The position numbers and the translations under genes were made by a program. Below are positions 1,750-45,436 of a stretch of 64,000 bases of DNA, piece after piece. Each line of letters begins with the position of its first letter. Within the stretch, counting starts at the first letter, position 1. The notes under the pieces are model-generated. The model was not told the DNA's origin, searched no databases, and saw only the letters and a program-made list of their open reading frames with translations. This DNA is from Bacteroidota bacterium. Its GTDB lineage: Bacteria > Bacteroidota > Bacteroidia > Palsa-965. The DNA lies in NCBI GenBank assembly GCA_003153435.1, contig PLYR01000050.1, forward strand, positions 29 to 64,028, given 5' to 3'.

Positions 1750-3381
1750 ATGAAAAAGAAACTACTCATTATAAGTGCAGCCACCCTCCTGTTGGCCTTG
1801 GCCAACCGAAGTTTTGGACAGGCACCAAACCTCGGAACAGCAGCAAACTTTGCTCTGTTTTCTACTAATGGCGCTGTTAGCAACACTGGAATTTCTCAGA
1901 TTACCGGTAATGTTGGTACGAATAATGGTTCCAGCACTGCATTCGGTAATGTCAATGGAGTAATGCACGACATGGATGGAGTTAGTGGGAGTGCGCCGGC
2001 GTCTACAGATGTACTGTCAGCTTATAACCAGTTAAACTTTACCAAGGCTACCGTATTTCCTGCTCCTTTATTGGGTAATGGACAAGTATTAACGGCCGGA
2101 GTTGATTCGATTGCAAGTGCAGCCACTTTGAACATGGGATTAACATTGGATGGACAAGGTCATTCCAATGCAGTTTTCATTATTAAAATAACTGGATCCC
2201 TATCGACTAATGCGTCTGCTAAAGTCTATCTGATTAATCAGGCGATGGCATGTAATGTATACTGGGTGGTAGAAGGCCTTGTAAGTATGGCTTCTGGAAC
2301 GACCATGAGAGGAACAATCATCGCTAACAATGCCGCGATAAATATGGGTACAGGAGATACCTTGGAAGGCAGAGCACTTTCAATCGCTGGTGCTGTTTCC
2401 GTAAGTGGTGTCTTGGTGTATACTCCAATCGGATGTGGAAGCCCTCTATTGATGGGCCCAGCCGCACCTAATATGGGAGCAGCAGCCTGTTATGCAATAT
2501 TTTCAAGTGGTGGAGCAGTGACCAATACAGGTATAACAAATGTTACTGGTGATGTTGGTACTAACACAGGAGCCTGCACGGGCTTCAGCGCTTCAAATGT
2601 TACGGGTACGATTCATCCGGGTCCTGATGGGTCAACTGCACAATGTGCTTCAGATCTGTTGACCGCATATAATTACCTGCACACACTACCTGTTGATATT
2701 GAATTGTTATATCCTGCTCAGTTAGGAAACAATCTGGTTCTCACACCACATACCTACTACATGGGTGGAGCCGCAACACTTACCGATACTCTGATCCTGA
2801 ATGCAGAAGGAAGTGCAAATGCAGTTTTTGTTCTTCTGATTAATGGAGCACTTACCACCAGTACCTATGCCAAGGTCAAACTAATTAATGGAGCATTGGC
2901 AAAAAATGTTTATTGGGTAATGGAGGGCGCTGTAACTATCAATAATTATTCCATCATTAATGGAACACTTATTTCCCACAGTGGTGCGTTAGGTGCAGTG
3001 AATACGGGAGTTGTTCTTAATGGACAAGCGTTGACCACTGGAGGCGCAGTTACGACTGATGCAATAACTGCCGGAGCGCCAAGTATACCTGGGAATTGTA
3101 CCACCGTTGGAATCCATGAATCTAATCCGGCCAATACAGCAGCTGCAAATATTTTCCCTAATCCTTTCAACGGGGTTGCAACAATTGTACTTCAAAACAA
3201 CTTGTCGTTCGAAGGAACAGAATTCAAATTGTACAATGTAATGGGTGAGGAAGTAATGAATATTCTTCTTACTAATCAATCCACAACCCTGAACATGAGC
3301 CAGATGCCGAAAGGGATTTATTTCTATGAACTCATCAATCAAGCTAGAAAAGTTCAAACTGGTAAATTGATTTCCCAGTAA
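1750..3381 (+). CDS. T9SS-secreted protein with two tandem ice-binding-like (DUF3494) domains
   Basis: Signal peptide. Two internally repeated ~200-aa modules begin APNLGTAANFALFSTNGAVSNTGISQITGNVGTNNGS and APNMGAAACYAIFSSGGAVTNTGITNVTGDVGTNTGA, matching the DUF3494/IBP beta-helix N-terminal consensus. C-terminal ~80 aa (IFPNPFNG...KLYNVMGEEV...GIYFYEL) resembles a type IX secretion sorting domain. Confidence 0.75.
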   Translation: MKKKLLIISAATLLLALANRSFGQAPNLGTAANFALFSTNGAVSNTGISQITGNVGTNNGSSTAFGNVNGVMHDMDGVSGSAPASTDVLSAYNQLNFTKATVFPAPLLGNGQVLTAGVDSIASAATLNMGLTLDGQGHSNAVFIIKITGSLSTNASAKVYLINQAMACNVYWVVEGLVSMASGTTMRGTIIANNAAINMGTGDTLEGRALSIAGAVSVSGVLVYTPIGCGSPLLMGPAAPNMGAAACYAIFSSGGAVTNTGITNVTGDVGTNTGACTGFSASNVTGTIHPGPDGSTAQCASDLLTAYNYLHTLPVDIELLYPAQLGNNLVLTPHTYYMGGAATLTDTLILNAEGSANAVFVLLINGALTTSTYAKVKLINGALAKNVYWVMEGAVTINNYSIINGTLISHSGALGAVNTGVVLNGQALTTGGAVTTDAITAGAPSIPGNCTTVGIHESNPANTAAANIFPNPFNGVATIVLQNNLSFEGTEFKLYNVMGEEVMNILLTNQSTTLNMSQMPKGIYFYELINQARKVQTGKLISQ

Positions 3382-7160: not shown

Positions 7161-9104
7161 TTATACTAATCTGGCTAACTTGCCATCGATTTCTTTTCCA
7201 ATAACGGCTGCAAAATCTGAAAGACTCATAGACCCTGCATCTCCATCACCTTGCTTTCTGACTGAAACCGTTTGATCCTCTTCCTCTTTTTCTCCTACAA
7301 TTAACATGTAAGGGATCTTTTTCACCTCAGTATCTCTGATTTTTCGGCCGATTTTCTCGTTCCGATCGTCAATAAGCCCGCGAATATCGTAATTATTTAG
7401 CAAATCCAAAACTTTTTTCGCGTAATCGTTGTATTTCTCACTGATTGGAAGTACCATAACTTGCTCAGGAGTAAGCCATAAAGGGAATTTTCCAGCACAA
7501 TGTTCGATCAACACAGCCACAAATCGCTCCAATGACCCGAATGGAGCCCGGTGTATCATGACCGGCCTATGTTTCTGATTATCACTACCAGTATATTCCA
7601 GTTCAAAGCGCTCCGGAAGGTTATAATCCACCTGAATTGTCCCTAACTGCCACTTCCTTCCTATAGCGTCTTTAACCATGAAATCGAGTTTTGGACCATA
7701 GAAGGCTGCTTCCCCAAGGACCGTAGTCGTTTTCAACCCTTTTTCTTTGGCAGAAGCGATAATCGCATCTTCTGCTTTTTTCCAGTTTTCATCACTTCCG
7801 ATGTATTTTGTCGTATTAGAAGGATCCCGGAGTGAGATTTGAGCCGTATAATCATTGAAATCGAGTGCTTTAAACACGTACAAAACAAGGTCTATGACCT
7901 TGCAGAATTCTTCTTCAATCTGGTCAGGTCTGCAGAAAAGATGGGCATCATCTTGAGTAAATCCTCTTACCCGGGTTAGGCCATGGAGTTCCCCATGCTG
8001 TTCATACCGGTAAACGGTACCGAATTCTGCCAAACGGATAGGCAGATCTTTATACGACCGGGGTTTGCTTTTATAAATCTCACAGTGGTGCGGGCAATTC
8101 ATCGGTTTAAGGAAAAATTCTTCACCTTCCTGTGGGGTCTTAATAGGTTGAAATGCATCTGCTCCGTACTTTTCGTAATGGCCTGACGTGACATAGAGCT
8201 GTTTATGACCAATATGAGGGGTGACAACAGGTAGATAACCAGATTTTATCTGAGCCTTTTGCATAAACTGGATCAGTCTTTCACGCAAGGCAGCCCCAGC
8301 CGGAAGCCATAGAGGTAATCCCATTCCAACTTTCTCAGAAAAACAAAACAGCTCTAATTCTTTTCCGAGCTTACGATGGTCTCGCTTTTTGGCTTCTTCG
8401 AGTAGTATTAGATATTCTTTGAGTTCTTTTTCCTTAGGAAAAGTGATCGCGTAAATACGGGTCAGTTGTTTATTCTTTTCATCACCTCTCCAATAAGCTC
8501 CGGCAATGCTCATGACCTTGGCTGCCTTAATAAAACCGGTGCTTGGAATATGAGGGCCACGGCATAAATCAGTAAATTTTCCTTGTTCATAGAAGGTAAT
8601 CGTCCCGTCGTTCAGATCTTTCAACAAATCGAGTTTATATTCATCCTTCTTTTCTGTGAAATAGGAAATAGCATCACTCTTGGAAACATCTTTCCTGATA
8701 TATGGGTTGTTTTGACGGGCTAACTCAATTATTTTGTCTTCAATTTTTTTGAAGTCTTCCGGGTTCAGTTGCGAACCTCCCAAATCAACATCGTAATAGA
8801 ACCCATTCTCAATTGGCGGACCAATACCGAATTTGATGCCCGGATATAGTGCTTCCAGTGCTTCTGCCAGGAGGTGAGCTGAAGAATGCCAGAGTGTAGA
8901 TTTGCCCAGTTCGTCATTCCAGGTCAGGAGATTAACACTGCTGTCCTGAAGAATCGGACGGGTAGCATCCCATACTTCTCCGTTAACTTTTGAGGCTAAA
9001 ACATTTCGTGCAAGGCCTTCACTTATACTCAGTGCAACTTGGAGAGAGGTTGTTCCTTTAGGGTATTCGCGCTGGGAACCATCGGGTAGAGTTATTTTTA
9101 TCAT
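7161..9104 (-). CDS. thrS: threonine--tRNA ligase
   Basis: 647 aa with a TGS-like N-terminus ([19 protein letters not shown]), class II aaRS core and a C-terminal anticodon-binding domain. Conserved thrS-infC-rpmI-rplT order. Confidence 0.95.
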
Positions 9105-26196: not shown

Positions 26197-29100
26197 TTAC
26201 CTTGCCTCAATGAAATCATTAAGCAATTTTTTACTGTTTCGGGTCTTGAAGAAACTCATCGGTGAATAATTAATATCCTTATCCTTACCTCGGATGAGCA
26301 TGTGGAGGAACCAATCTTCATCAGTGTAGGATCCGAACGGTTTCGGAGTCATAGTGATCAATTGATATCCAAATTGTCCTGCAATCTGAGGAAAGAGATT
26401 AAAATTCAGGTCATCAATATTTGACAATTCTTCTATAATTATAAACTTAACTCCCGGACGTGTTCTATCTTTTTGAATAACAGAAAGTCGTCCGATACAA
26501 AGCAGAGCAAGGGCTGTGTATGCTTGTCCCCCGGATCCAGTATACTTAATCCCCACATCATCGAACAGACCAACTTTCAGTTCAAAATAGAATTTAGGAT
26601 TAAGAAGGTCGCTCAGTTCACAGTTCTTGATAGAGCTGAATGTTTTAGCGATGTTTACAATCAGTTTTTCAGGTGAATTCTGTGTTTTGTCAATATCTTC
26701 GATTTCAGTGAACAAGTCAGCTCCGAACTTCTGAACCTTTGCCTTTTCACGCATTTTTCGGATCCATTCTATAGTAATTTCCTTCTTTTCCAGGAATTCA
26801 ATTCTGAATTGATAGTTATTACTGATCCTGTTTTCTGTAAAGAAGAAGTTAAGCTCCGTAATAAGTTTGCGGAAGTTCTGGTACTGCCGGGCCACCTGGT
26901 CAAATACATTGAGGATAATTGTCAACTGCAGGTCACCAAATTTCTTGAGCTCCTCATTCAATTTTAGAAGTTCTGGGCCAATACCTTCCAGCCCTAGTTT
27001 ACCACAGAGCACATTCACCAGGGTCTGGAAATTGAATTTGTCTGTCTCCAGTTCCTGGTTTTTATTATCCTTTGTCTCATCAAAGGATTGGGCAATGCGA
27101 GCAAATTCATTTTCGAAATTACGGCGGTCTGTAACCGACTTTTCTGCCAGTTGAAGGATTCTTGCATTAGTATAATCTCCAAGATGTGGAAGGTCTTCCC
27201 ATTTGAGATTGGTGTCTTTTTCCAGATCATCCCGCTTCTCATCAAAGATGGCTTGCGTTTTTTCCAGTTCCAGCTTCAGTTGAGGTTCTTTTTCCTGACA
27301 GGCTTTGACTACTCCATCAATCGAAATCTGATTCCTGACAGCTGCTTCCTTTTCGGGTGCGGTTTCTTCAACCTTTCGTTCTAGTTGAGATTTCTGTGCA
27401 ATAATGTCTTCGATAGGCAGTGTTTCAAATTTGGGTTTGATCCACTCTACTTTGAAGGGCAGTTCTTCCTTAAGTTTGTTTATCTCGTATTTACATTTGT
27501 CGTTATCATCCAGGATCTGCTCAAGCTTGAGTTTGAATTCGGTCTGCTGTTGCGCAAGGCGAATTGCTTCCCTGTTAGCATTCTGATATTGACGGTCAAG
27601 TTCATCAAAGGCGCCGAGTTGTTCTTCATTCTCAATAAATGCTTCCATCACCGTTTTGTTCAGGTCCTCATCTATCTCGTAGGCTTCAATCTTTTTGCGA
27701 TTTTTATAAGCATCCGCCATATCAGCATTGTATCCTATTTCAAGAAGCTCGAGGTTCAGTTTGCGGATAAGCTTGAGCTCCTCTTCGGCATCCTTCAGGT
27801 TCTGGAGGATTTCTTTTTTGTCTTTTTCAAGTACCGTCTTAAGCTTCTTCGCATCGTCAAATTTTTGTTTGCCGACCATGGGAATCAACTCCCGAATTTC
27901 TCCGAGTATGAGCCAAAGTCCCCCATGTTTATCTGCCTCATAGCTGCTCAGAAGTTTCTGAGGATTGGTGGTGTATTTTAAGATTTCATCTTCCTTTCCT
28001 ACAGGTTTCTTGGTAGCAATATCCTTAAGGTGCATCAGAACGGATTCTTCCTCTTTGCTCAAGGGGCGTTTTTCACTTACAGCCCAATGGAATAATGAGT
28101 TTGCATTGCTTTTGTCATAAAGTTCAAGTAAGCCACTCAGTTGATCGATGGTTCGAGGCAATTCTGCAGCCTTTTCAGGATAATTCTTTAAGGCAGCAGC
28201 AAAATCACTCGCCCATTCGGAGCCTTCAAACTCGGAATAGCTTTTTATGCCTTTGAGAAGTTTCAGTTTTGCTTTGCGGTCCCGGTATTTTTCCTGTTCA
28301 CGCATTTTTTCCTGAGCAGCCTGCGCGCTCTGGTATCGTTTGAAGATGGGAGCAAGTTTTTCCAGTTCATTGACAAGGATGAAAAGTTCATTGGCTTGAG
28401 CTCTTTTTTCTTCAATCTTACGGTCACTCAGGGTAGGAATCAGGTCCTCATAGTATTTCTGCAGATGAGTGTTCACCGAAAGCAAGTCCTGATACGCCTT
28501 CAATGCATTTTCAGTGAGTATTTTTACTTCCTTTTTATTCTTGTCAAGACTTCTGACAGCTCCTTCATACCTTGTCTTGTTTTCATTGAAATGACGTTGT
28601 GCTTCAATGAAAAAATTATAGGCATGAATAGTATCTGCAGTCAGGAACTCATCTCTGGAGGCGACACTTTTGTCAAGCATCTTCTGCAGGGAGGTTAGTT
28701 TGGTTTGTTTCTGGTCCAGTTCTTTAATCAGGTCTCTGCTTGAATTATATTGCTTGATATAGTTCTCAAGTTGATCTTTTTGTTCTTCGAAAAGTGTTTT
28801 GATTTCATCATTGTCTTCGAAAAGAAAATTCTGAAGAGAGCGGGAATTTGTTACATCCAGTGTTTTGGCTCTGGAGAATGACTGAAGGATCTTCGCCAGG
28901 GCTTTCAGGTTAGTATCTTTGGTCAGGTCTATAGGCACAATGTGGTTTACGAAGAGTGTTTCGTAATAATTCATGATTTCTTCGTGCTGGAAGTAATCAT
29001 AAAGGTAAATATCAAAAGAAAGAGTGAGGTGCGCCTTTAGCTCCTTGAGTTCCATGACGGTTTTATTCGGTGCAAGGAAATCCGTAGCATGAAGAGGCCG

Positions 29101-29499
29101 GTCGAAATTTTCCAACTCCTTTTTGGAAAAATCGGAGTTCTTTTGAATGATAAAAGGCCTTACCGGGTAACGTGAGTTTTTGGGAATATAAACACCAATC
29201 GTCACGAATTTCCCTTTTGCCCTTTCAATATTGAAGAAGGCATAGGCATGGTCTACATAAGTTTTATTCAGAGGGATACCTTCAATTCTTCTTTCATTTT
29301 TATCCAGTCCTTCCGTACCTGGCTTCCATAAATCCCTTTTAGGGATCAGGATGAGTTGCATTAAGTCGGCTACAATCGATTTACCAAGGCCATTATCGCC
29401 GGTAAAATCGGTTCGAACCGGATGGAGGAGATAGTCGCAATTATTATGCTGGCGCACTCCTACGGTTGAAAGGGAATAGATCTTAGGATAATTGCTCAT
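26197..29499 (-). CDS. MukB/MksB/JetC-like SMC-family ATPase
   Basis: 1100 aa. N-terminal head with Walker A FTGDNGLGKS, then LIPK and ...IGVYIPKNSRYPVRPFIIQ, paralleling MukB GGNGAGKST...LIPD...KPFAIQ. About 700 aa of charged heptad-rich coiled coil follows. C-terminal head has the signature TGSGGQAYTALALL and a Walker-B-like KFIIIEEL. Confidence 0.8.
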   Translation of the reverse strand: MSNYPKIYSLSTVGVRQHNNCDYLLHPVRTDFTGDNGLGKSIVADLMQLILIPKRDLWKPGTEGLDKNERRIEGIPLNKTYVDHAYAFFNIERAKGKFVTIGVYIPKNSRYPVRPFIIQKNSDFSKKELENFDRPLHATDFLAPNKTVMELKELKAHLTLSFDIYLYDYFQHEEIMNYYETLFVNHIVPIDLTKDTNLKALAKILQSFSRAKTLDVTNSRSLQNFLFEDNDEIKTLFEEQKDQLENYIKQYNSSRDLIKELDQKQTKLTSLQKMLDKSVASRDEFLTADTIHAYNFFIEAQRHFNENKTRYEGAVRSLDKNKKEVKILTENALKAYQDLLSVNTHLQKYYEDLIPTLSDRKIEEKRAQANELFILVNELEKLAPIFKRYQSAQAAQEKMREQEKYRDRKAKLKLLKGIKSYSEFEGSEWASDFAAALKNYPEKAAELPRTIDQLSGLLELYDKSNANSLFHWAVSEKRPLSKEEESVLMHLKDIATKKPVGKEDEILKYTTNPQKLLSSYEADKHGGLWLILGEIRELIPMVGKQKFDDAKKLKTVLEKDKKEILQNLKDAEEELKLIRKLNLELLEIGYNADMADAYKNRKKIEAYEIDEDLNKTVMEAFIENEEQLGAFDELDRQYQNANREAIRLAQQQTEFKLKLEQILDDNDKCKYEINKLKEELPFKVEWIKPKFETLPIEDIIAQKSQLERKVEETAPEKEAAVRNQISIDGVVKACQEKEPQLKLELEKTQAIFDEKRDDLEKDTNLKWEDLPHLGDYTNARILQLAEKSVTDRRNFENEFARIAQSFDETKDNKNQELETDKFNFQTLVNVLCGKLGLEGIGPELLKLNEELKKFGDLQLTIILNVFDQVARQYQNFRKLITELNFFFTENRISNNYQFRIEFLEKKEITIEWIRKMREKAKVQKFGADLFTEIEDIDKTQNSPEKLIVNIAKTFSSIKNCELSDLLNPKFYFELKVGLFDDVGIKYTGSGGQAYTALALLCIGRLSVIQKDRTRPGVKFIIIEELSNIDDLNFNLFPQIAGQFGYQLITMTPKPFGSYTDEDWFLHMLIRGKDKDINYSPMSFFKTRNSKKLLNDFIEAR

Positions 29500-30139
29500 G
29501 GATATAATCTTCTGTTAGTTCAACTTCATTGATTTCGCGTGCATACATCTTTGCAAGACGGTCTATACTTGGCATAATTTCGAAGTGGAAGGCTTCCTGG
29601 TTTATCCAGTTAACCCATCCCATTCGCTCAAATTCGTTCAATGTACGTTCAATTTTACGTTTCACTTCGTCTTTTTCGTTAGGGGTATAGTTACGCTTGA
29701 GTTCTCCGTAGAGCAACCGCTGCCAGAGTTCTTTATGTTCCCCTTCTTCAGTAATCTGCTCGATATCATCCCAGGTCATTTCTTTTGCTTCAAAGAATTT
29801 TTCCTTAGAAGAATTCAACAGGAGGATACCGAAAACAACATGCTTGTCTTCAAGTTCCCTACACCTGTCGCGAGTGAAGCGGCCATACCCTTCTTCCGGG
29901 AAATCGAGGTAGAAATAGACATCTCTGTCGTTACTCTCCCTGCGGAGAAAACAGTTATACAGCAGCTCGTAGTAATTCTGAAGATGACCGTAGTTATCGT
30001 TTATATAATCCCATATTTTAGTATCGTAGCTGTAGTTCTGAATATGCTTTCCCTGTGTCAGGGCAAAGTTTGCTTCAGCAAAATACCGTATAGAGCTTTC
30101 TTTTCCTAGGAATTCGAAGGCTGAATTTTCATTCTCCAT
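29483..30139 (-). CDS. MukE/MksE/JetB-like small acidic subunit (putative)
   Basis: 218-aa acidic protein whose stop overlaps the SMC-like gene start by 17 nt. Position and size match MksE/JetB (DUF4194). Family not verifiable by eye. Confidence 0.45.
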   Translation of the reverse strand: MENENSAFEFLGKESSIRYFAEANFALTQGKHIQNYSYDTKIWDYINDNYGHLQNYYELLYNCFLRRESNDRDVYFYLDFPEEGYGRFTRDRCRELEDKHVVFGILLLNSSKEKFFEAKEMTWDDIEQITEEGEHKELWQRLLYGELKRNYTPNEKDEVKRKIERTLNEFERMGWVNWINQEAFHFEIMPSIDRLAKMYAREINEVELTEDYIHEQLS

Positions 30140-31434
30140 ATCGTTACGTCGTCGTTAAGGTTAAAAGTTCTTTCTTTTTCTATAATCAGATCTGCATCTG
30201 GATTTTTATTGTGTTGCTGGATGAGTCCGAAACAGACATCAATAGGGACTTCCAGATTTTGCTCAGCTGCATATATCTCGCTGAACCAGTCTTCAAATTC
30301 TATATGGCCACCAGCCTTAATCTTGACGTTGATATCTTCAATCCATTTGGAGATATGCTCTTGCCGGATGAGAACCTGCATATTTGCAGCCTCCTTTGCC
30401 ATACGCAGTTCCTCGTCTTCTGCCATTTCAATAACATCCTTGGGTATGACGTCATTGAAGTTAAGTTTAGGGACAAAACGGAATTTGCGTTTGAAATAAG
30501 GAAACACTTTCCGGTTGAATTCAGGAGGTAAGGTGATTTCACCTTCTATAGATTGCGCGGAACGGATCAGAGAGACGAGATATTTTTCTACTTTGAGTTT
30601 ATAGATCTGTTTGTAGCGTAATGAATCGTAAAGAGTTTTCAGACGCGATGAGGAGGTCTGGATCCGATCATTAATGGCGAGCACACGGCTATCAATGGTT
30701 TCGAAAAACTGTTCTATCTCCGCCCGGATCTTAAAATACCTCTCCCAGCTTTCCTTTTCCTTTAGAAAAGCAGGCTCCGCGTTCTTGATCCGGTCTAATG
30801 TATCTTGTTTGAAGTTAAGAGTCTGGGTGAGGCCCTCCGTTTGTTTTCCTATTTCGCGGAATACAAGAATGAATTTGTCGAGCAGTCCCCTTGCATTATC
30901 TACATCTGCTTTGAGTATGGATCTCAGTTCATATGTTTTCTTATCTACGAAACGCTGAAGATTTTCGATATGCCCAAGAATTCGTTTCTTGGCCGGGCCA
31001 TAGTGATTATAATACCAGTAATTCAGATTTTGGACATTGATCAGGTCCTCTTCAGTGAGAGGGAGTGTACGGCGGAATGTATAGATCAGCGGTAGATCGT
31101 CATATTGAGGCTGAACTTCATTAATTATTGCAGCGGTAAGATCTTTCGCATATACAGTGAGCTGATAGCGGTATTCACCCCCCCGTTTTGCAGTGGTATA
31201 AAAATATTGACTCAGTTTTTTGGAAATAGTCTCTTTCTGTATGCTTTTCTCCCTTCCAAGCATTTCGGCTACCTGATCAACGGTCTTCTCGAAGTCATGC
31301 TGGGAAAAGGCTTCGTCAATTTCTCCCTTTTCAATCTTATCGTTGAGTTCCATCAAAAGAATCACCGATTCCGGATTGGAAGGGAGTAATAATTCGTAAT
31401 TTCGGGTGATACTCTGGATCAGATCGCTCTCCAT
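30106..31434 (-). CDS. MukF/MksF/JetA-like kleisin subunit (putative)
   Basis: 442 aa, first gene of the operon, overlapping the next gene by 34 nt. Size and order match MksF/JetA (DUF3375). Assignment by operon context only. Confidence 0.4.
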   Translation of the reverse strand: MESDLIQSITRNYELLLPSNPESVILLMELNDKIEKGEIDEAFSQHDFEKTVDQVAEMLGREKSIQKETISKKLSQYFYTTAKRGGEYRYQLTVYAKDLTAAIINEVQPQYDDLPLIYTFRRTLPLTEEDLINVQNLNYWYYNHYGPAKKRILGHIENLQRFVDKKTYELRSILKADVDNARGLLDKFILVFREIGKQTEGLTQTLNFKQDTLDRIKNAEPAFLKEKESWERYFKIRAEIEQFFETIDSRVLAINDRIQTSSSRLKTLYDSLRYKQIYKLKVEKYLVSLIRSAQSIEGEITLPPEFNRKVFPYFKRKFRFVPKLNFNDVIPKDVIEMAEDEELRMAKEAANMQVLIRQEHISKWIEDINVKIKAGGHIEFEDWFSEIYAAEQNLEVPIDVCFGLIQQHNKNPDADLIIEKERTFNLNDDVTIWRMKIQPSNS

Positions 31435-42725: not shown

Positions 42726-43187
42726 CTAATTGGGTAAGATTAGAATTTTTTCCTCTTCCAGAGTAATGCCATAATTGATTGAAATCATCCTGCCCTTTTC
42801 GAAGTAAAAATCCATAAGAGCATCGTCAAAACTTATACGTCGTTCGCCCCAGTCATGGTCCTCCATATCTATCTCTTTATAGCCTTGGAGAATAAAAAGG
42901 GCTTTTAGCTCGGGTTCAGAAAAGCTAAAGATCTTCTTTCCCCATAAGAGGGTTTCCGGATGGTCTATCTCTACACAGGTAAACTTGATACCTTGTTTGA
43001 CATCAAAGAAAAGGGAGAATCCTTTTTCCCAGAAATGCCAGATGAGTGACCTCTCTTCCGGAGTATCTCCCAGGGTTTCCGTTTCTTCCGGTTTGCCAAA
43101 ACAGCTCTCCGCATCCCTGGTTCCGGTTCCAAATAGGAGTGAATTAAGGCCTTTTTGAGGTTTAATGTCTAGAATCAGGGGTGGCAT
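42726..43187 (-). CDS. hypothetical protein
   Basis: 153-aa ORF; no motifs recognised. Confidence 0.35.
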   Translation of the reverse strand: MPPLILDIKPQKGLNSLLFGTGTRDAESCFGKPEETETLGDTPEERSLIWHFWEKGFSLFFDVKQGIKFTCVEIDHPETLLWGKKIFSFSEPELKALFILQGYKEIDMEDHDWGERRISFDDALMDFYFEKGRMISINYGITLEEEKILILPN

Positions 43188-43307
43188 GAGGTTGTGTTAC
43201 GTTCTTCTCAAAGATAAAAAAATTAACGGTAAAGTGTGCAATAACAACTAGTTGAGAAATATTGAGAAATAAAATTTATCCACTTTGAATAATCAGAATA
43301 AGTCTAT

Positions 43308-43315
43308 TATATTTG
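43308..43315 (+). promoter_or_regulatory. -7 promoter box (TATATTTG) upstream of tRNA-Lys
   Basis: Matches the TAnnTTTG consensus 35 nt upstream of the mature tRNA 5' end. Confidence 0.35.
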
Positions 43316-43349
43316 CAGCCGATTTAACAAATCATTTACTTTAAAATAG

Positions 43350-43425
43350 GATTCCGTAGCTCAGTTGGTAGAGCACAACACTTTTAATGTTGGGGTCCTG
43401 GGTTCGAGCCCCAGCGGGATCACCA
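43350..43425 (+). tRNA. tRNA-Lys (anticodon UUU), CCA encoded
   Basis: Cloverleaf folded by hand. Acceptor GATTCCG/CGGGATC, D-arm GCTC-AGTTGGTA-GAGC, anticodon stem CAACA/TGTTG with loop CTTTTAA, T-arm CTGGG-TTCGAGC-CCCAG, discriminator A, then CCA. Confidence 0.9.
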
Positions 43426-43434
43426 TGAAGCAGG

Positions 43435-43468
43435 AAAATCCGGAGCAGTAATGCTCCGGATTTTTCGC
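43435..43468 (+). terminator. rho-independent terminator after tRNA-Lys
   Basis: aaaatccggagc-agtaat-gctccggatttt hairpin with a T-run, nested in a longer tgaagc...gcttca inverted repeat. Confidence 0.55.
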
Positions 43469-43600
43469 TTCATGGCCCTGAAGCGATCGACTGAGGGGGA
43501 TCTGCTTCAGGGCAGAAAATCAGAGCGAGTGAGGAGTCCGAAAGCGACCTCACTTGTTTGCATTTGGGGCGAGAAGTTTATCCTGAGCGAAGTCGAAGGA

Positions 43601-43617
43601 AGCCCCAGCGGGATCAC
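43601..43617 (+). repeat. 17-bp direct repeat of the tRNA-Lys 3' end (copy of 43407..43423)
   Basis: agccccagcgggatcac is identical to the tRNA T-stem/acceptor 3' half and lies 194 bp downstream. It is embedded in REP-like sequence (tcctgagcgaagtcgaagga; gtcattccgactgcgcaaggaatgagc at 43729..43755). Confidence 0.6.
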
Positions 43618-43949
43618 AGAAGACTAGAATACAGAGCGGAGAAAGAGTGTTAATGTGCCCTTACTCTTTCTTCGCTTTGTTTTTTGTATACTCCTTTAAG
43701 ACTTCTCATTCTCTCTTTATCGAAACTGTCATTCCGACTGCGCAAGGAATGAGCGAAGAGGAGGAATCTCAGTTGGTTGGAATTCTGTCCTCTACGCCTC
43801 ATTTATTCTTGTTTTCCGTCATCCTGAACCCGATTCCAAACTGGTTGATGATTTCTATGCTCCGATCTTCCTGCAAGTACTTACGTAACCTGGAAACAAA
43901 TACATCCAAACTTCTTCCCAAAAAATAATCATCATCGCCCACACCGGTT

Positions 43950-45371
43950 TTAAATAAATTTATCCAACCGATAAATTCTGAAATCAGCATTATCAAAAAT
44001 CTGCTTGTAAGGGAGAATAACATCTCGTCCGAACGCACGCTTCAGTATTATGATGAACTTCAATCCTTTGCTTTTCAGCTTCGCAATATGACAACCATTC
44101 GATAATTGTTCATTATTCTCCACCCAGCCTTTTCGGTGTGAAAAATACATGGGGGTCGGGACTGCTCCGCTGTTAATCGCCACTAGATCATTTCTGCTGC
44201 CAAGCCGATCCATCACTTCTTCAAGCTGGATGATTGCCTTGTTTTCCTCTTTAATATAAAAATCAATGTTTTTGCGTGCAATGGATTCAATGGTGAACAA
44301 ACACAGCGTCAAGACAATCACTTTCTTATTTTGTATTTGCTCCATGCCATAAGCTGCTATTAAAGCCATTACAGGGGCGAAGGGGATGATGTAGTAGTCA
44401 TGAGCATAAAAGGTGAGGCCCGACTTCAGAACAATTGCTAGAAAACCTATTGTGGCTAGAGTGAATAGGTAAATAAGTTTTTTTTGATTTTTATATATTA
44501 TGAAAACCAATCCAAGAATGAAAATCAAAAAACCAGAATAGCCCAACGCTTCCAGATAAAATTTTTCAAGAGTGTCGTTGAGGTTACCCATAATTTCAGT
44601 AAGACCAACGGACATGTTTTTACCCATGAAGAAGTGGCTGAACTCATATTGTTTAGTTAAGTAAGGAACCCAGTAAAAATAAAAGACGGAGATTACAGTT
44701 CCGATGCAGGCAGTAACAACTGAAAAGTACACTTTTGCCCGGAAGGTGATTTCTTTATTAAATAAGAAAAAAGCATACAAAATGAGGATGTATCCAGAAG
44801 GAAGTTTAGATAAGACACCGAGGAGGGTGAAGAGTGCATAAAGCAGCAGATTCCTAACACTTTGTACCTTGTCAAGATAGTTGCTCCCATAATAAAAACC
44901 AATTGTAATCAGCGACATGGAGAACGTATCAGGCATTATTTTCCTTGAAAACGTAAACCAAACCGAAAGGAGAAGGAAAATGGTAGCCATGAACGCAATT
45001 CTCCCTTGAAAGTATTTTCGGATGAGAAGATAAAAGTAATACAGTCCCAAACTGGAAATAAGCAGATTAATTAATCGTCCGTACCAGTGGCCATATCCAA
45101 AGACAAGGGAACATAAATAAATGAGGTAATTGAGAAAAGGAAACTCCATGCCTGTAATCCCGGTTTTTTCTCCTGCAAAGTCAATTCTGGGATAAAATAT
45201 ATTATTATCCTTTTCAAGGAAATTACGGGCCACCATGGTAACAGTGGTTTGTCTCCAGTTGTGTGAAGTTTCCAAGGGGGGATTGGTAATTCCGTAGAGC
45301 CTTAATAGGAAGAAGAAAATTATCCAAACCCGGATATCGCCGGTAAATCTTTTTAGTATTGAGTCCTCCAT
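43950..45371 (-). CDS. ArnT/PMT-like membrane glycosyltransferase (GT39/GT83 family)
   Basis: 473 aa with about 11 TM helices and an N-terminal loop motif typical of dolichyl/undecaprenyl-phosphate sugar transferases (RLYGITNPPLETSHNWRQT). Confidence 0.7.
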   Translation of the reverse strand: MEDSILKRFTGDIRVWIIFFFLLRLYGITNPPLETSHNWRQTTVTMVARNFLEKDNNIFYPRIDFAGEKTGITGMEFPFLNYLIYLCSLVFGYGHWYGRLINLLISSLGLYYFYLLIRKYFQGRIAFMATIFLLLSVWFTFSRKIMPDTFSMSLITIGFYYGSNYLDKVQSVRNLLLYALFTLLGVLSKLPSGYILILYAFFLFNKEITFRAKVYFSVVTACIGTVISVFYFYWVPYLTKQYEFSHFFMGKNMSVGLTEIMGNLNDTLEKFYLEALGYSGFLIFILGLVFIIYKNQKKLIYLFTLATIGFLAIVLKSGLTFYAHDYYIIPFAPVMALIAAYGMEQIQNKKVIVLTLCLFTIESIARKNIDFYIKEENKAIIQLEEVMDRLGSRNDLVAINSGAVPTPMYFSHRKGWVENNEQLSNGCHIAKLKSKGLKFIIILKRAFGRDVILPYKQIFDNADFRIYRLDKFI

Positions 45372-45436
45372 ATCTTAACAGCATTCAATCTATCGATCTG
45401 CACATTCATCATCTGTTTATCTTTCCAAAGAATAAA

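Follow-up and report, generated by a model that had tools for sequence, protein, structure and literature searches.

The tRNA-Lys gene in the stretch of Bacteroidota DNA analysed herein (the window, 64,000 nucleotides in full) is followed at short distance by a second copy of its own 3' end, which raises the question of whether an integrating element once used this gene as its attachment site and, if so, what is left of the event. Our analysis favours, at somewhat better than even chances, a decayed scar of the attL/attR type that a tDNA-targeted integration would have produced, and which now lies within a rearranged junk zone holding a truncated MITE end, a fragment of a response-regulator gene and an out-of-context ArnT-like gene (Table 1).

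Table 1 Features of the tRNA-Lys locus, with positions in the window
Feature	Position	Strand	Remarks
tRNA-Lys(TTT), intact, CCA encoded	43350..43425	+	ARAGORN; Rfam RF00005, 70.4 bits
Core copy 1, AGCCCCAGCGGGATCAC	43407..43423	+	Belongs to the live tRNA
Segment X, 90 bp	43424..43513	+	Not after the tRNA in L092, L093, L005, L095
Hairpin H1	43423-43475	+	-40 kcal/mol, z -9.9; 24 bp; terminator-like
Hairpin H2	43475-43513	+	-23.8 kcal/mol, z -5.5
Hairpin T1	43514..43565	+	-18.9 kcal/mol, z -2.5; orthologous to the native tRNA-Lys terminator of relatives
Segment Y	43566..43600	+	Start aligns with L092; end is the MITE/REP-like motif
Solo terminal-inverted-repeat motif, ATCCTGAGCGAAGTCGAAGGA	43580-43600	+	Bacteroidota MITE/REP-like family; both ends truncated
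Block of 1.84 kb lacking a counterpart in L092	43583..45424		7-bp microhomology GTTTATC (43576-82, 45415-21)
Core copy 2, displaced tRNA-Lys 3' fragment	43601..43617	+	17/17 against copy 1
Hairpin T2, native-type tRNA-Lys terminator	43618..43690	+	-29.9 kcal/mol, z -6.5
Degenerate composite, GTCAT...GAGCG...ATC family	43729..43771	+	Family pattern, by reading of the sequence
OmpR-family response-regulator gene, 3' fragment	43802..43950	-	~46-50 codons; Pfam PF00486; database matches
ArnT-like/GT39 (PMT_2) glycosyltransferase gene, full length	43950..45371	-	Missing here in all relatives

Using ARAGORN, a single tRNA was predicted across the whole window. A second complete tRNA gene is absent, since an Rfam scan of positions 43150-44000 at E ≤ 10 also returned one tRNA, and nothing beyond tRNA-Lys was found at either the gathering or the E ≤ 10 threshold; a 10-nt match to the D-arm at 43768, where no tRNA is called, was taken as chance. 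Core copy 1 spans A58-G59-C60 of the T-loop, the 3' strands of the T-stem and the acceptor stem, the discriminator A and one further C. The 17-mer occurs exactly twice in the window, and still twice when two mismatches are permitted, while 0.02 copies are expected from shuffled sequence. Both copies lie on the plus strand, at the distance of 194 bp given in the preliminary description, which holds when measured from start to start; 177 bp separate the two, and copy 2 begins 175 nt past the end of the tRNA gene. Identity is confined sharply to the 17 nt, as the adjoining segments (3' of copy 1, and on either side of copy 2) show no significant mutual similarity. Full identity between unrelated flanks makes the block att-like and unlike an old tandem duplication, and the idea that a larger unit was simply duplicated in tandem within the window was discarded, given that unrelated sequence follows the two cores. 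Identity begins at A58, and thus the full 7-nt T-loop is not common to both cores.

A chance or repeat-borne match, or an empty attB left by excision as the preliminary description had suggested, could be proposed from the REP- and MITE-like motifs nearby and from a site free of element genes, yet we find these readings hardly credible. Precise site-specific excision leaves one core, whereas here two are still in place as an attL/attR-like pair, and the shuffled expectation speaks against chance. In ~1.8 Mb of related loci the 17-mer is found at tRNA-Lys 3' ends only, and seven non-tRNA matches in IMG/VR fall in unrelated GC-rich sequence or a terminator. The copy is a genuine displaced tRNA 3' fragment and not part of a dispersed repeat. 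The motif TCCTGAGCGAAGTCGAAGGA, which had been placed beyond the repeat, in fact immediately precedes core copy 2 (43581-43600); it is single-copy in the window and has no stable fold (z 0.27). Palindromic MITE/REP-like elements of the type GTCAT...GAGCG...ATC, for which we know of no published name, were found in L021, L104 and Pedobacter loci, where full elements comprise two terminal inverted repeats starting with GTCAT around a ~30-40 bp core (83-105 bp overall). Positions 43580-43600 match such a terminal repeat in L043 at 21/21, but the window motif is solo, without GTCAT and ATC, and the second, inverted repeat that characterizes these elements is missing from the window. The degenerate composite further downstream includes a small GTCATTCC/GGAATGA hairpin, and a literature sequence search for the CCTGAGCGAAGTCGAAGG motif returned nothing relevant. 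The family motif does not include the 17-mer, and the motif in the window is a bystander or a deletion edge, not the source of the 17-nt duplication.

The flank of copy 1 is new, whilst that of copy 2 is of the native type. Segment X provides the 'CA' that finishes the CCA of tRNA-Lys and carries hairpins H1 and H2; this combination of CCA and H1 after ...CAC was seen in the window only, whereas L092, L093, L005 and L095 go straight to T1 or T2 with no CCA. Within H1, an inner perfect stem of 13 bp (43435-47/43452-64) is followed by a T-run, and the outer stem is akin to the stem of H2 (CCATGAAGC / CCCTGAAGC). The T1 orthologue stands directly 3' of tRNA-Lys in L092, L005 and L095, with ~39/47 aligned columns matching L092 by our own count and CAGAAAATCAGAGCGAG matching L005 at 17/17. 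The first ~17 nt of segment Y continue the alignment with the sequence 3' of T1 in L092, up to GTTTATC (43576-43582). T2 consists of a 19-bp stem and then TTTTTTGT, and the tract 43601-43682 aligns with L093, from the tRNA end into the sequence beyond it, at 83% across 89 columns (E 3.8e-16); copy 2 plus its flank (…CAC|AGAA) also matches the L005 tRNA end plus flank at 21/21. The hairpins listed in the preliminary description were thus borne out by folding as H1, H2, T1 and T2. H1 and T2 are each followed by a T-run, and T1 and T2 are conserved right after the tRNA in relatives. A simple consensus terminator scan called none of the hairpins, as their loop or T-run lies outside its rules, and they are therefore called terminators on structural grounds.

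In 16 syntenic relatives, the shared order runs up to the 3' end of the tRNA and breaks off precisely there (at 43423/43424 in L005, L007 and L092-L096). The tRNA-Lys sequence up to ...GGGATCAC is the same in the window and in these seven, and the sequence 3' of the gene differs in most lineages. The closest relative, L092 (~92% nucleotide identity), lacks ~2 kb that are present here, so that 43424-45424 is strain-specific relative to that genome. Single-copy sites occur in relatives, and the predicted uninterrupted junction was found in L093, where T2, native only there, comes directly after the tRNA. Integrating elements use this tRNA-Lys in relatives: L100 carries a tyrosine integrase (Arm-DNA-bind_5/SAM_5/Phage_integrase) 171 bp downstream of the gene, and in the IMG/VR proviruses L001 and L003 an integrase follows directly after an identical tRNA; the provirus L004, in which an integrase also adjoins the identical tRNA, shares the L003 flank. 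A serine-recombinase/IS island occupies the same tRNA in L007, whose tRNA-proximal flank is shared by L096. In the integrase-bearing elements, the restored tRNA end is followed by a terminator hairpin that the element itself supplies, the part played here by H1. The IMG/VR scan with the 17-mer yielded no contig with two copies and no attR for the integrase-bearing relatives, and querying INPHARED with either the tRNA or its 3' 32 nt brought up phage-encoded tRNAs and, apart from these, a single chance match in a GC-rich coding region.

These observations are consistent with a tyrosine integrase having joined an element attP that carried a tDNA fragment to the T-loop/acceptor region of the tRNA gene, which would give the order tRNA-core-[element]-core-native flank. 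The inserted DNA would have split the tRNA-Lys body from its 3' end, leaving the latter attached to native-type T2, and would have supplied its own 17-nt copy, now completed to CCA, together with its own strong hairpin H1. The element, with integrase and cargo, would later have been deleted, leaving 177 bp of hairpins between the cores. Later reworking may then have placed T1 within the interval and the truncated MITE end against copy 2, shortened the response-regulator gene and misplaced the ArnT-like gene. Recombination between the cores would rebuild a tRNA-T2 junction as in L093, the predicted empty-site junction running from ...GGGATCAC straight to AGAAGACTAGAATACAG and the predicted junction of the 194-bp circle being GAAGGA-core-CATGAAGC. 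T1 is native and chromosomal in L092, L005 and L095, so the interval cannot simply be element DNA and must have arisen through two or more events or have a recombinant past. Because copy 2 abuts the truncated MITE end, its left edge may reflect a later deletion and not the crossover. We infer that an integrase created this particular junction, and likewise the order and number of events. On balance, we lean towards tRNA-Lys being a rearrangement hot spot that holds a fossil pair of cores; this is not an empty site and, judging by the evidence so far, not a mobile unit either.

The same arrangement could descend from a second tRNA-Lys gene that has decayed, starting either from an ancestral order tRNA-T1-tRNA-T2 or from a tandem duplication limited to the 3' end and its terminator. 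A deletion or MITE event would then have removed the promoter and first 57 nt of the distal copy, with 17 nt and T2 remaining. Tandem tRNA-Lys(TTT) pairs adjoining aroK do exist in the Flavobacteriales L028 and L084. Moreover, tRNA end and terminator together form a tandemly repeated unit of 125 bp in L103 (copies ~88% alike, by our own reading), L093 has a second partial module, and simple deletions could turn such an ancestor into either the L092-type or the L093-type site. That copy 2 abuts the end of a truncated repeat on its left also suits this history, as do the related AGAA..CAGAGCG.AG arms with which T1, T2 and, less clearly, H1 open (by reading; the within-window comparison is non-significant), such 5' arms being expected if the terminators are paralogous. 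However, none of the 16 syntenic relatives has a second tRNA-Lys, which would require many independent losses. The cores also agree at 17/17 although T1 and T2 show no significant similarity, and an old duplication should have eroded the non-functional core: at the divergence of the flanks, 17 unchanged positions would be expected at ~0.6^17, or about 2e-4 by our own estimate. The new CCA and H1 after copy 1 are left unexplained as well, and we therefore regard a decayed second gene as unlikely.

Further downstream, the 760-bp gap had been described as wholly non-coding, which proved wrong since 43802-43950 on the minus strand is the end of a response-regulator gene. The fragment covers positions 31-77 of 77 in Trans_reg_C (PF00486; E 2.7e-4) and has 56 database matches at 60-74% identity (E down to 4.6e-13). 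The receiver domain is missing, as is the first half of the wHTH domain, and homology sets in where the glycosyltransferase gene ends, at its stop codon. Two homologues, P0122 and P0125, were followed as a lead to a donor locus and dropped, as they lie in ordinary HK-RR operons with no tRNA-Lys near; they are short matches beside a separate receiver-domain ORF and probably represent split response-regulator genes. The nearest homologues of the ArnT-like gene (62-65% identity) have a panC-GT5-PMT_2-BamH context that is not present in the window, and the gene was probably displaced or acquired. No Pfam match (E ≤ 0.1) was obtained for the ORFs 43451-43627, 43647-43928 and 43650-43802. Pfam matches of 34 ORFs (~23-63 kb of the window) were ordinary or unassigned, with no integrase, recombinase or transposase among them, and the whole window holds no integrase, excisionase, serine-recombinase-like or mobile-element gene, including between the cores.

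The strain-specific sequence also bears on whether the scar arose in place. In L092, T1 is followed without a break by the counterpart of the sequence from 45425 on (orf109, DUF4421), and the block containing copy 2 differs from that genome by a single indel with a 7-bp microhomology, so the scar may have been imported ready-made. By this account, 43583-45424, with the motif, copy 2, T2, the response-regulator fragment and the ArnT-like gene, would be foreign DNA from a T2-type relative that entered ~25 bp past the resident T1 through illegitimate recombination at GTTTATC, and the displaced tRNA fragment would have been made by integration in the donor. The join in L092 is exact, with no missing or extra bases beyond the microhomology; T2 is native only in L093 while T1 is native in the nearest relative of the window; and the ArnT-like gene is outside its usual context, its GC content being slightly lower than that of the window (0.382 vs 0.419). 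Still, one deletion in L092 accounts equally well for the indel, and the microhomology is not distinctive (149 of 1000 shuffles score equally). A longer direct repeat around the block was sought, and just this non-significant match was found. No donor-like locus uniting T2, the response regulator and PMT_2 was found either, and we hold an import to be quite unlikely. As an integration would still be needed to make the fragment, it is a variant of the fossil-scar explanation and not an alternative mechanism.

Two perfect direct cores, and an interval whose terminator keeps the tRNA functional, would also suit a 194-bp non-autonomous unit (core plus 177 bp) that is still moved at tRNA-Lys by an integrase encoded elsewhere, and short modules of tRNA end plus terminator occur in L093 and L103 too. 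We consider a unit of this kind very improbable. No further copy of the 177-bp interval was found in the window or in 115 fetched loci (~1.8 Mb), and an H1 hairpin scan of IMG/VR gave no match. The interval also holds T1 and ~17 nt of its flank, which are chromosomal in L092, the window is devoid of an integrase, and a tyrosine-integrase attP, arm sites included, normally takes up ~250 bp (Hudson et al. 2015, PMC4383910). A broader idea, to which we give very little weight, is that, in this Bacteroidia clade, a tRNA-Lys 3' end and a terminator travel together as a short mobile cassette, an integrase-less mini-element of ~100-200 bp exchanged at the tRNA-Lys T-loop by integrases acting in trans. 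If true, the recurrence of these cassettes in the window, L093 and L103 would be accounted for, as would the exchange of H1/T1/T2 alleles between lineages. It is the possible mobilisation of such very short cassettes that would be of wider interest.

Reading the locus as a fossil scar means that this uncultured lineage of soil or peat Bacteroidia has a recombination hot spot at tRNA-Lys, and it would account for the ~2 kb that are strain-specific. In annotation, the 17-mer should be treated as neither a gene nor a repeat family, and the response-regulator ORF as a fragment of a pseudogene. Fragments of tDNA displaced in this way are a textbook mark of integration by an integrase and a common, well-understood type of scar, and hence no new mechanism is called for. 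An independent displaced TCCCAGCGGGATCACCA fragment in L103 likewise starts in the T-loop.

Among known systems, degraded or tandem island arrays arise where successive integrations at tRNA hot spots push older tDNA fragments outward. The locus resembles them in its serial modules of tRNA end plus terminator (H1, T1, T2) and in downstream content that is variable in most relatives. It differs in having a single intact displaced fragment: alignment hints at a third, degenerate core before T1 (43487-43513), but this putative middle fragment is statistically unconvincing, as 3% of background windows score equally, and was not counted. Islands and prophages in tDNA are reportedly bounded by a regenerated tRNA gene and a displaced 3' fragment (Reiter et al. 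1989; Williams 2002; Hudson et al. 2015, PMC4383910). In Islander, islands of 2-200 kb are recognised by an intact tDNA and a cognate displaced fragment, and known crossover sublocations are the anticodon loop, the T-loop and the T/acceptor junction (Hudson et al. 2015, PMC4383910). Measured against this scheme, the full tDNA at 43350-43425 and the cognate fragment at 43601-43617 are on the same replicon and co-oriented, and the gene comes before its 3' fragment, as expected. That fragment is terminal (A58 to the discriminator plus 1), its flank is the native flank of L005 and L093, and it overlaps no conserved protein domain. The start of the block at A58 is compatible with the T/J class, although the left edge abuts a truncated repeat and is possibly secondary. 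A tyrosine integrase gene between tDNA and fragment is absent, and the spacing of 194 bp (start to start) contrasts with the 2-200 kb of islands. Unlike a tDNA island, the interval is without integrase or cargo and contains the native-type terminator piece T1; for these reasons, and given the 194-bp span, the locus is a remnant and not an island. It resembles tDNA islands in that copy 2 has a native-type flank, the live gene has a new one and integrase-bearing elements occupy the same tRNA in relatives.

A single tRNA gene, tRNA-Lys(TTT), was called by ARAGORN in the window, and a 17-mer from its 3′ end, AGCCCCAGCGGGATCAC, is present both within the gene (copy 1, 43407-43423) and downstream of it (copy 2, 43601-43617), with no other site in the window when up to two mismatches are allowed. 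Since shuffled sequences predict 0.02 copies, the second exact copy noted in the preliminary description is real, as are the hairpins listed there (H1, H2, T1, and T2), which are unusually stable; the inner stem of H1 is a perfect 13 bp followed by a T-run. On the cloverleaf, the 17-mer spans the final three bases of the T-loop (A58-C60), the 3′ strands of the T and acceptor stems, the discriminator A, and the +1 C. The identity ends sharply on both sides, and local alignments of the segments after copy 1, before copy 2, and after copy 2 do not exceed shuffled controls. The suggestion of an empty attB left by excision is untenable, because excision leaves a single core and two are present; we regard an empty site, chance, or a REP family as scarcely credible origins of the pair. 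A D-arm 10-mer, CTCAGTTGGT (43360-43369), also recurs at 43768-43777, 408 bp past the tRNA, where no tRNA-like structure was called and the match is probably due to chance.

Features of the tRNA-Lys locus and sites of the GTCAT-type motif (window positions unless a comparison locus is named; folding energies in kcal/mol)
Feature	Location	Strand	Energy	z	Remarks
tRNA-Lys(TTT)	43350-43425	+			ARAGORN; Rfam 70.4 bits
H1	43423-43475		−40	−9.9	
H2	43475-43513		−23.8	−5.5	
T1	43514-43565		−18.9	−2.5	
T2	43618-43690		−29.9	−6.5	
Response-regulator fragment, OmpR-type	43802-43950	−			last ~46 residues; Pfam Trans_reg_C positions 31-77 of 77
ArnT-like (PMT_2) GT39 gene	43950-45371	−			full-length; between the putative tRNA scar and orf109; co-oriented with DUF4421/orf109 genes
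GTCAT...GAGCG...ATC motif	43580-43600				solo, cut at both ends
GTCAT...GAGCG...ATC motif	43729-43771				degenerate composite
GTCAT...GAGCG...ATC motif	L021 3385-3490, 4284-4366				
GTCAT...GAGCG...ATC motif	L104 13193-13280				
GTCAT...GAGCG...ATC motif	L032 4655-4730				

The TCCTGAGCGAAGTCGAAGGA motif, which had been placed beyond the second copy, in fact lies directly before it (43581-43600), is single-copy in the window, and has no fold. The terminal inverted repeats of palindromic MITE/REP-like elements of 83-105 bp in several Bacteroidota (L021, L104, and Pedobacter loci), a family for which we found no published name, have the pattern GTCAT-YYY-GAGCG-nAG-nnGA-RRR-ATC. The truncated motif before copy 2 probably marks a deletion edge; as the cause of the 17-nt duplication the motif was rejected, as it lacks the 17-mer. 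Nor is the gap wholly non-coding, as had been proposed: its minus strand encodes the C-terminal residues of a response regulator (56 database matches, 60-74% identity, E down to 4.6e-13), a gene fragment because the homology starts at the stop of the upstream ArnT-like gene.

Syntenic loci were retrieved via aroK from species-representative genomes (L005, L006, L007, and L008) and via alignment of the 153-aa protein adjoining the tRNA from metagenomes (L092-L104), the closest relative being L092 (97% amino-acid and about 92% nucleotide identity). A single tRNA-Lys(TTT) stands beside the 153-aa gene in 16 syntenic loci, while L006 stops short of that position. Nucleotide synteny with the window halts exactly at 43423/43424 in L005, L007, and L092-L096, and the sequence past the tRNA differs in most lineages. 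In L092, L005, and L095 the tRNA ends in ...GGGATCAC, without CCA, and is followed at once by a hairpin starting (A/T)GAAA(A)T(A)CAGAGCGAG, of which T1 is, judging by sequence, the orthologue (17/17 identical to L005 at its start, and matching L092 in about 39 of 47 aligned columns by manual count). The tRNA of L093 runs directly into another hairpin, AGAAGGTCAGAATACAGAGCGGAG..., and this tRNA end with its hairpin aligns to copy 2 plus T2 (43601-43682) at 83% over 89 columns (E 3.8e-16); copy 2 and its next four bases are moreover identical to the tRNA end and flank of L005 (21/21). Given these native flanks, copy 2 has the appearance of a 3′ end from a formerly intact tRNA-Lys gene, with a putative native-type terminator still joined, and recombination between the two cores would restore an L093-type tRNA-T2 junction. 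The 90 bp after copy 1 (segment X, 43424-43513), present in no relative, begin with CA, by which an encoded CCA is completed, and continue with H1 and H2; this CCA is lacking from the tRNA genes of L092, L093, L005, and L095. About 160 nt downstream of its tRNA, L093 has a second partial module (3235-3325, minus strand), GGAGATCAC then AGAAGGCTAGAA... with a T2-like hairpin, followed by a small gene pair that is toxin-antitoxin-like as judged from sequence and also lies past the tRNA of L005.

Decay of a second tRNA-Lys gene, or partial duplication in tandem, is a rival origin; the related 5′ arms of T1 and T2 as well as known tandem pairs in Flavobacteriales speak for it. Against it, a second tRNA-Lys is missing from all 16 clade members, and T1 and T2 are unrelated apart from those arms, yet the cores are perfect, so that we consider this origin rather unlikely. 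The tandem tRNA-Lys(TTT) pairs adjoin aroK in two genomes (L028 7581-7743; L084 9638-9874). The neighbourhood of aroK and tRNA-Lys must therefore be ancient, and duplication of the tRNA gene can occur in it.

In relatives, tRNA-Lys(TTT) is an integration site, and the predicted islands or integrases were found. The syntenic L100 encodes a tyrosine integrase of 418 aa (Arm-DNA-bind_5, SAM_5, Phage_integrase), whose gene begins 171 bp past the tRNA and reads in the same direction, and L099 has the same tRNA-proximal flank. Integrases of this architecture also lie directly past tRNA-Lys in the IMG/VR proviruses L001 and L003, where the tRNA 3′ half is identical to that of the window; the flank of provirus L004 equals that of L003, and all three bring their own hairpin past the tRNA end. 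Targeting of tDNA is known for tyrosine recombinases only (PMC4383910). In L007 (5492-7080) the gene next to the tRNA encodes a large serine recombinase (Resolvase, Recombinase, and Zn ribbon), with an IS (rve) and a gene for an AlwI-type endonuclease after it; the recombinase abuts the tRNA 3′ end, its ORF running antisense through the terminator into the tRNA, and L096 (1-1708) has this tRNA-proximal flank in common. An independent displaced tRNA-Lys 3′ end occurs in L103, where a second TCCCAGCGGGATCACCA, beginning in the T-loop, lies 125 bp downstream: past the tRNA (7339-7414), a 125-bp unit (the last 17 nt of the tRNA, its terminator, and ~35 nt of flank) is repeated in tandem (~7215-7340, minus strand), its two copies about 88% alike by reading. 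Within the window, no ORF resembles an integrase or a serine recombinase, and the 34 ORFs searched with Pfam (about 23-63 kb of the window) gave ordinary or unassigned matches, with no integrase, recombinase, or transposase domain. Three window genes in a row (26197-31434, minus strand), encoding an MksE-domain protein (PF21980) between ORFs of 1100 and 442 aa, may form a Mks/Wadjet-type condensin-like operon.

In L092 the order is tRNA, T1, and then, after ~25 bp, sequence homologous to the window from 45425 on (orf109, DUF4421, and a 1108-aa protein). Relative to L092, the window therefore has two extra pieces: segment X and a 1.84-kb block (43583-45424), either gained here or lost in L092, comprising in this order the truncated motif, copy 2, T2, the degenerate repeat, the response-regulator fragment, and the ArnT-like gene. 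The block junctions share GTTTATC alone (43576, 45415), a microhomology of 7 bp that does not stand out statistically. No related locus has a homologue of the ArnT-like gene; its closest homologues, at 62-65% identity, belong to a panC-GT5-PMT_2-BamH context, none of whose genes is in the window, and it was probably displaced or acquired. Its C-terminus is four residues longer than theirs, which suggests a stop codon derived from the junction. As a variant of the integration mechanism, the scar could have formed in another genome and been imported inside this block, which we think improbable. Of the 14 TTTATCC sites on the plus strand of the window, three lie within 700 bp of one another at this locus (43275, 43577, 43959), two of them on rearrangement junctions (the left edge of the block, and the point where the ArnT-like gene meets the response-regulator fragment), and an exact 11-mer, AAATTTATCCA, is found at both 43272 and 43956; these recurrences could be microhomology for illegitimate recombination, or chance.

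On balance we lean towards reading the 17-mer pair as a fossil of tDNA-targeted integration. The integrated element would since have been deleted, its left edge with a putative terminator (CCA and H1) presumably still serving the tRNA, and the old tRNA 3′ end with T2 would have been left stranded downstream. T1 belongs to the native sequence of the nearest relatives yet lies inside the interval, which calls for at least two events or a recombinant history. A live miniature element is very improbable, as no further copy was found in any data searched and the interval holds chromosomal-type sequence. The feature is real and of a well-known kind, and adds a new example from an uncultured Bacteroidia lineage. 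According to the principle behind Islander, the published criteria for tDNA-integrated islands, integration splits the gene, a fragment borne by the island regenerates it, and the displaced fragment shows where the far end of the island lies (PMC4383910). The window fragment agrees with these islands in all geometric respects, being a cognate, downstream, terminal 3′ fragment in the same orientation and outside protein domains, and its T-loop start is compatible with the T-loop/junction crossover class. Unlike Islander islands, which measure 2-200 kb, the window has an interval of 194 bp and no integrase between the repeats, and the locus thus compares with the fossil of an integration rather than with a present island.
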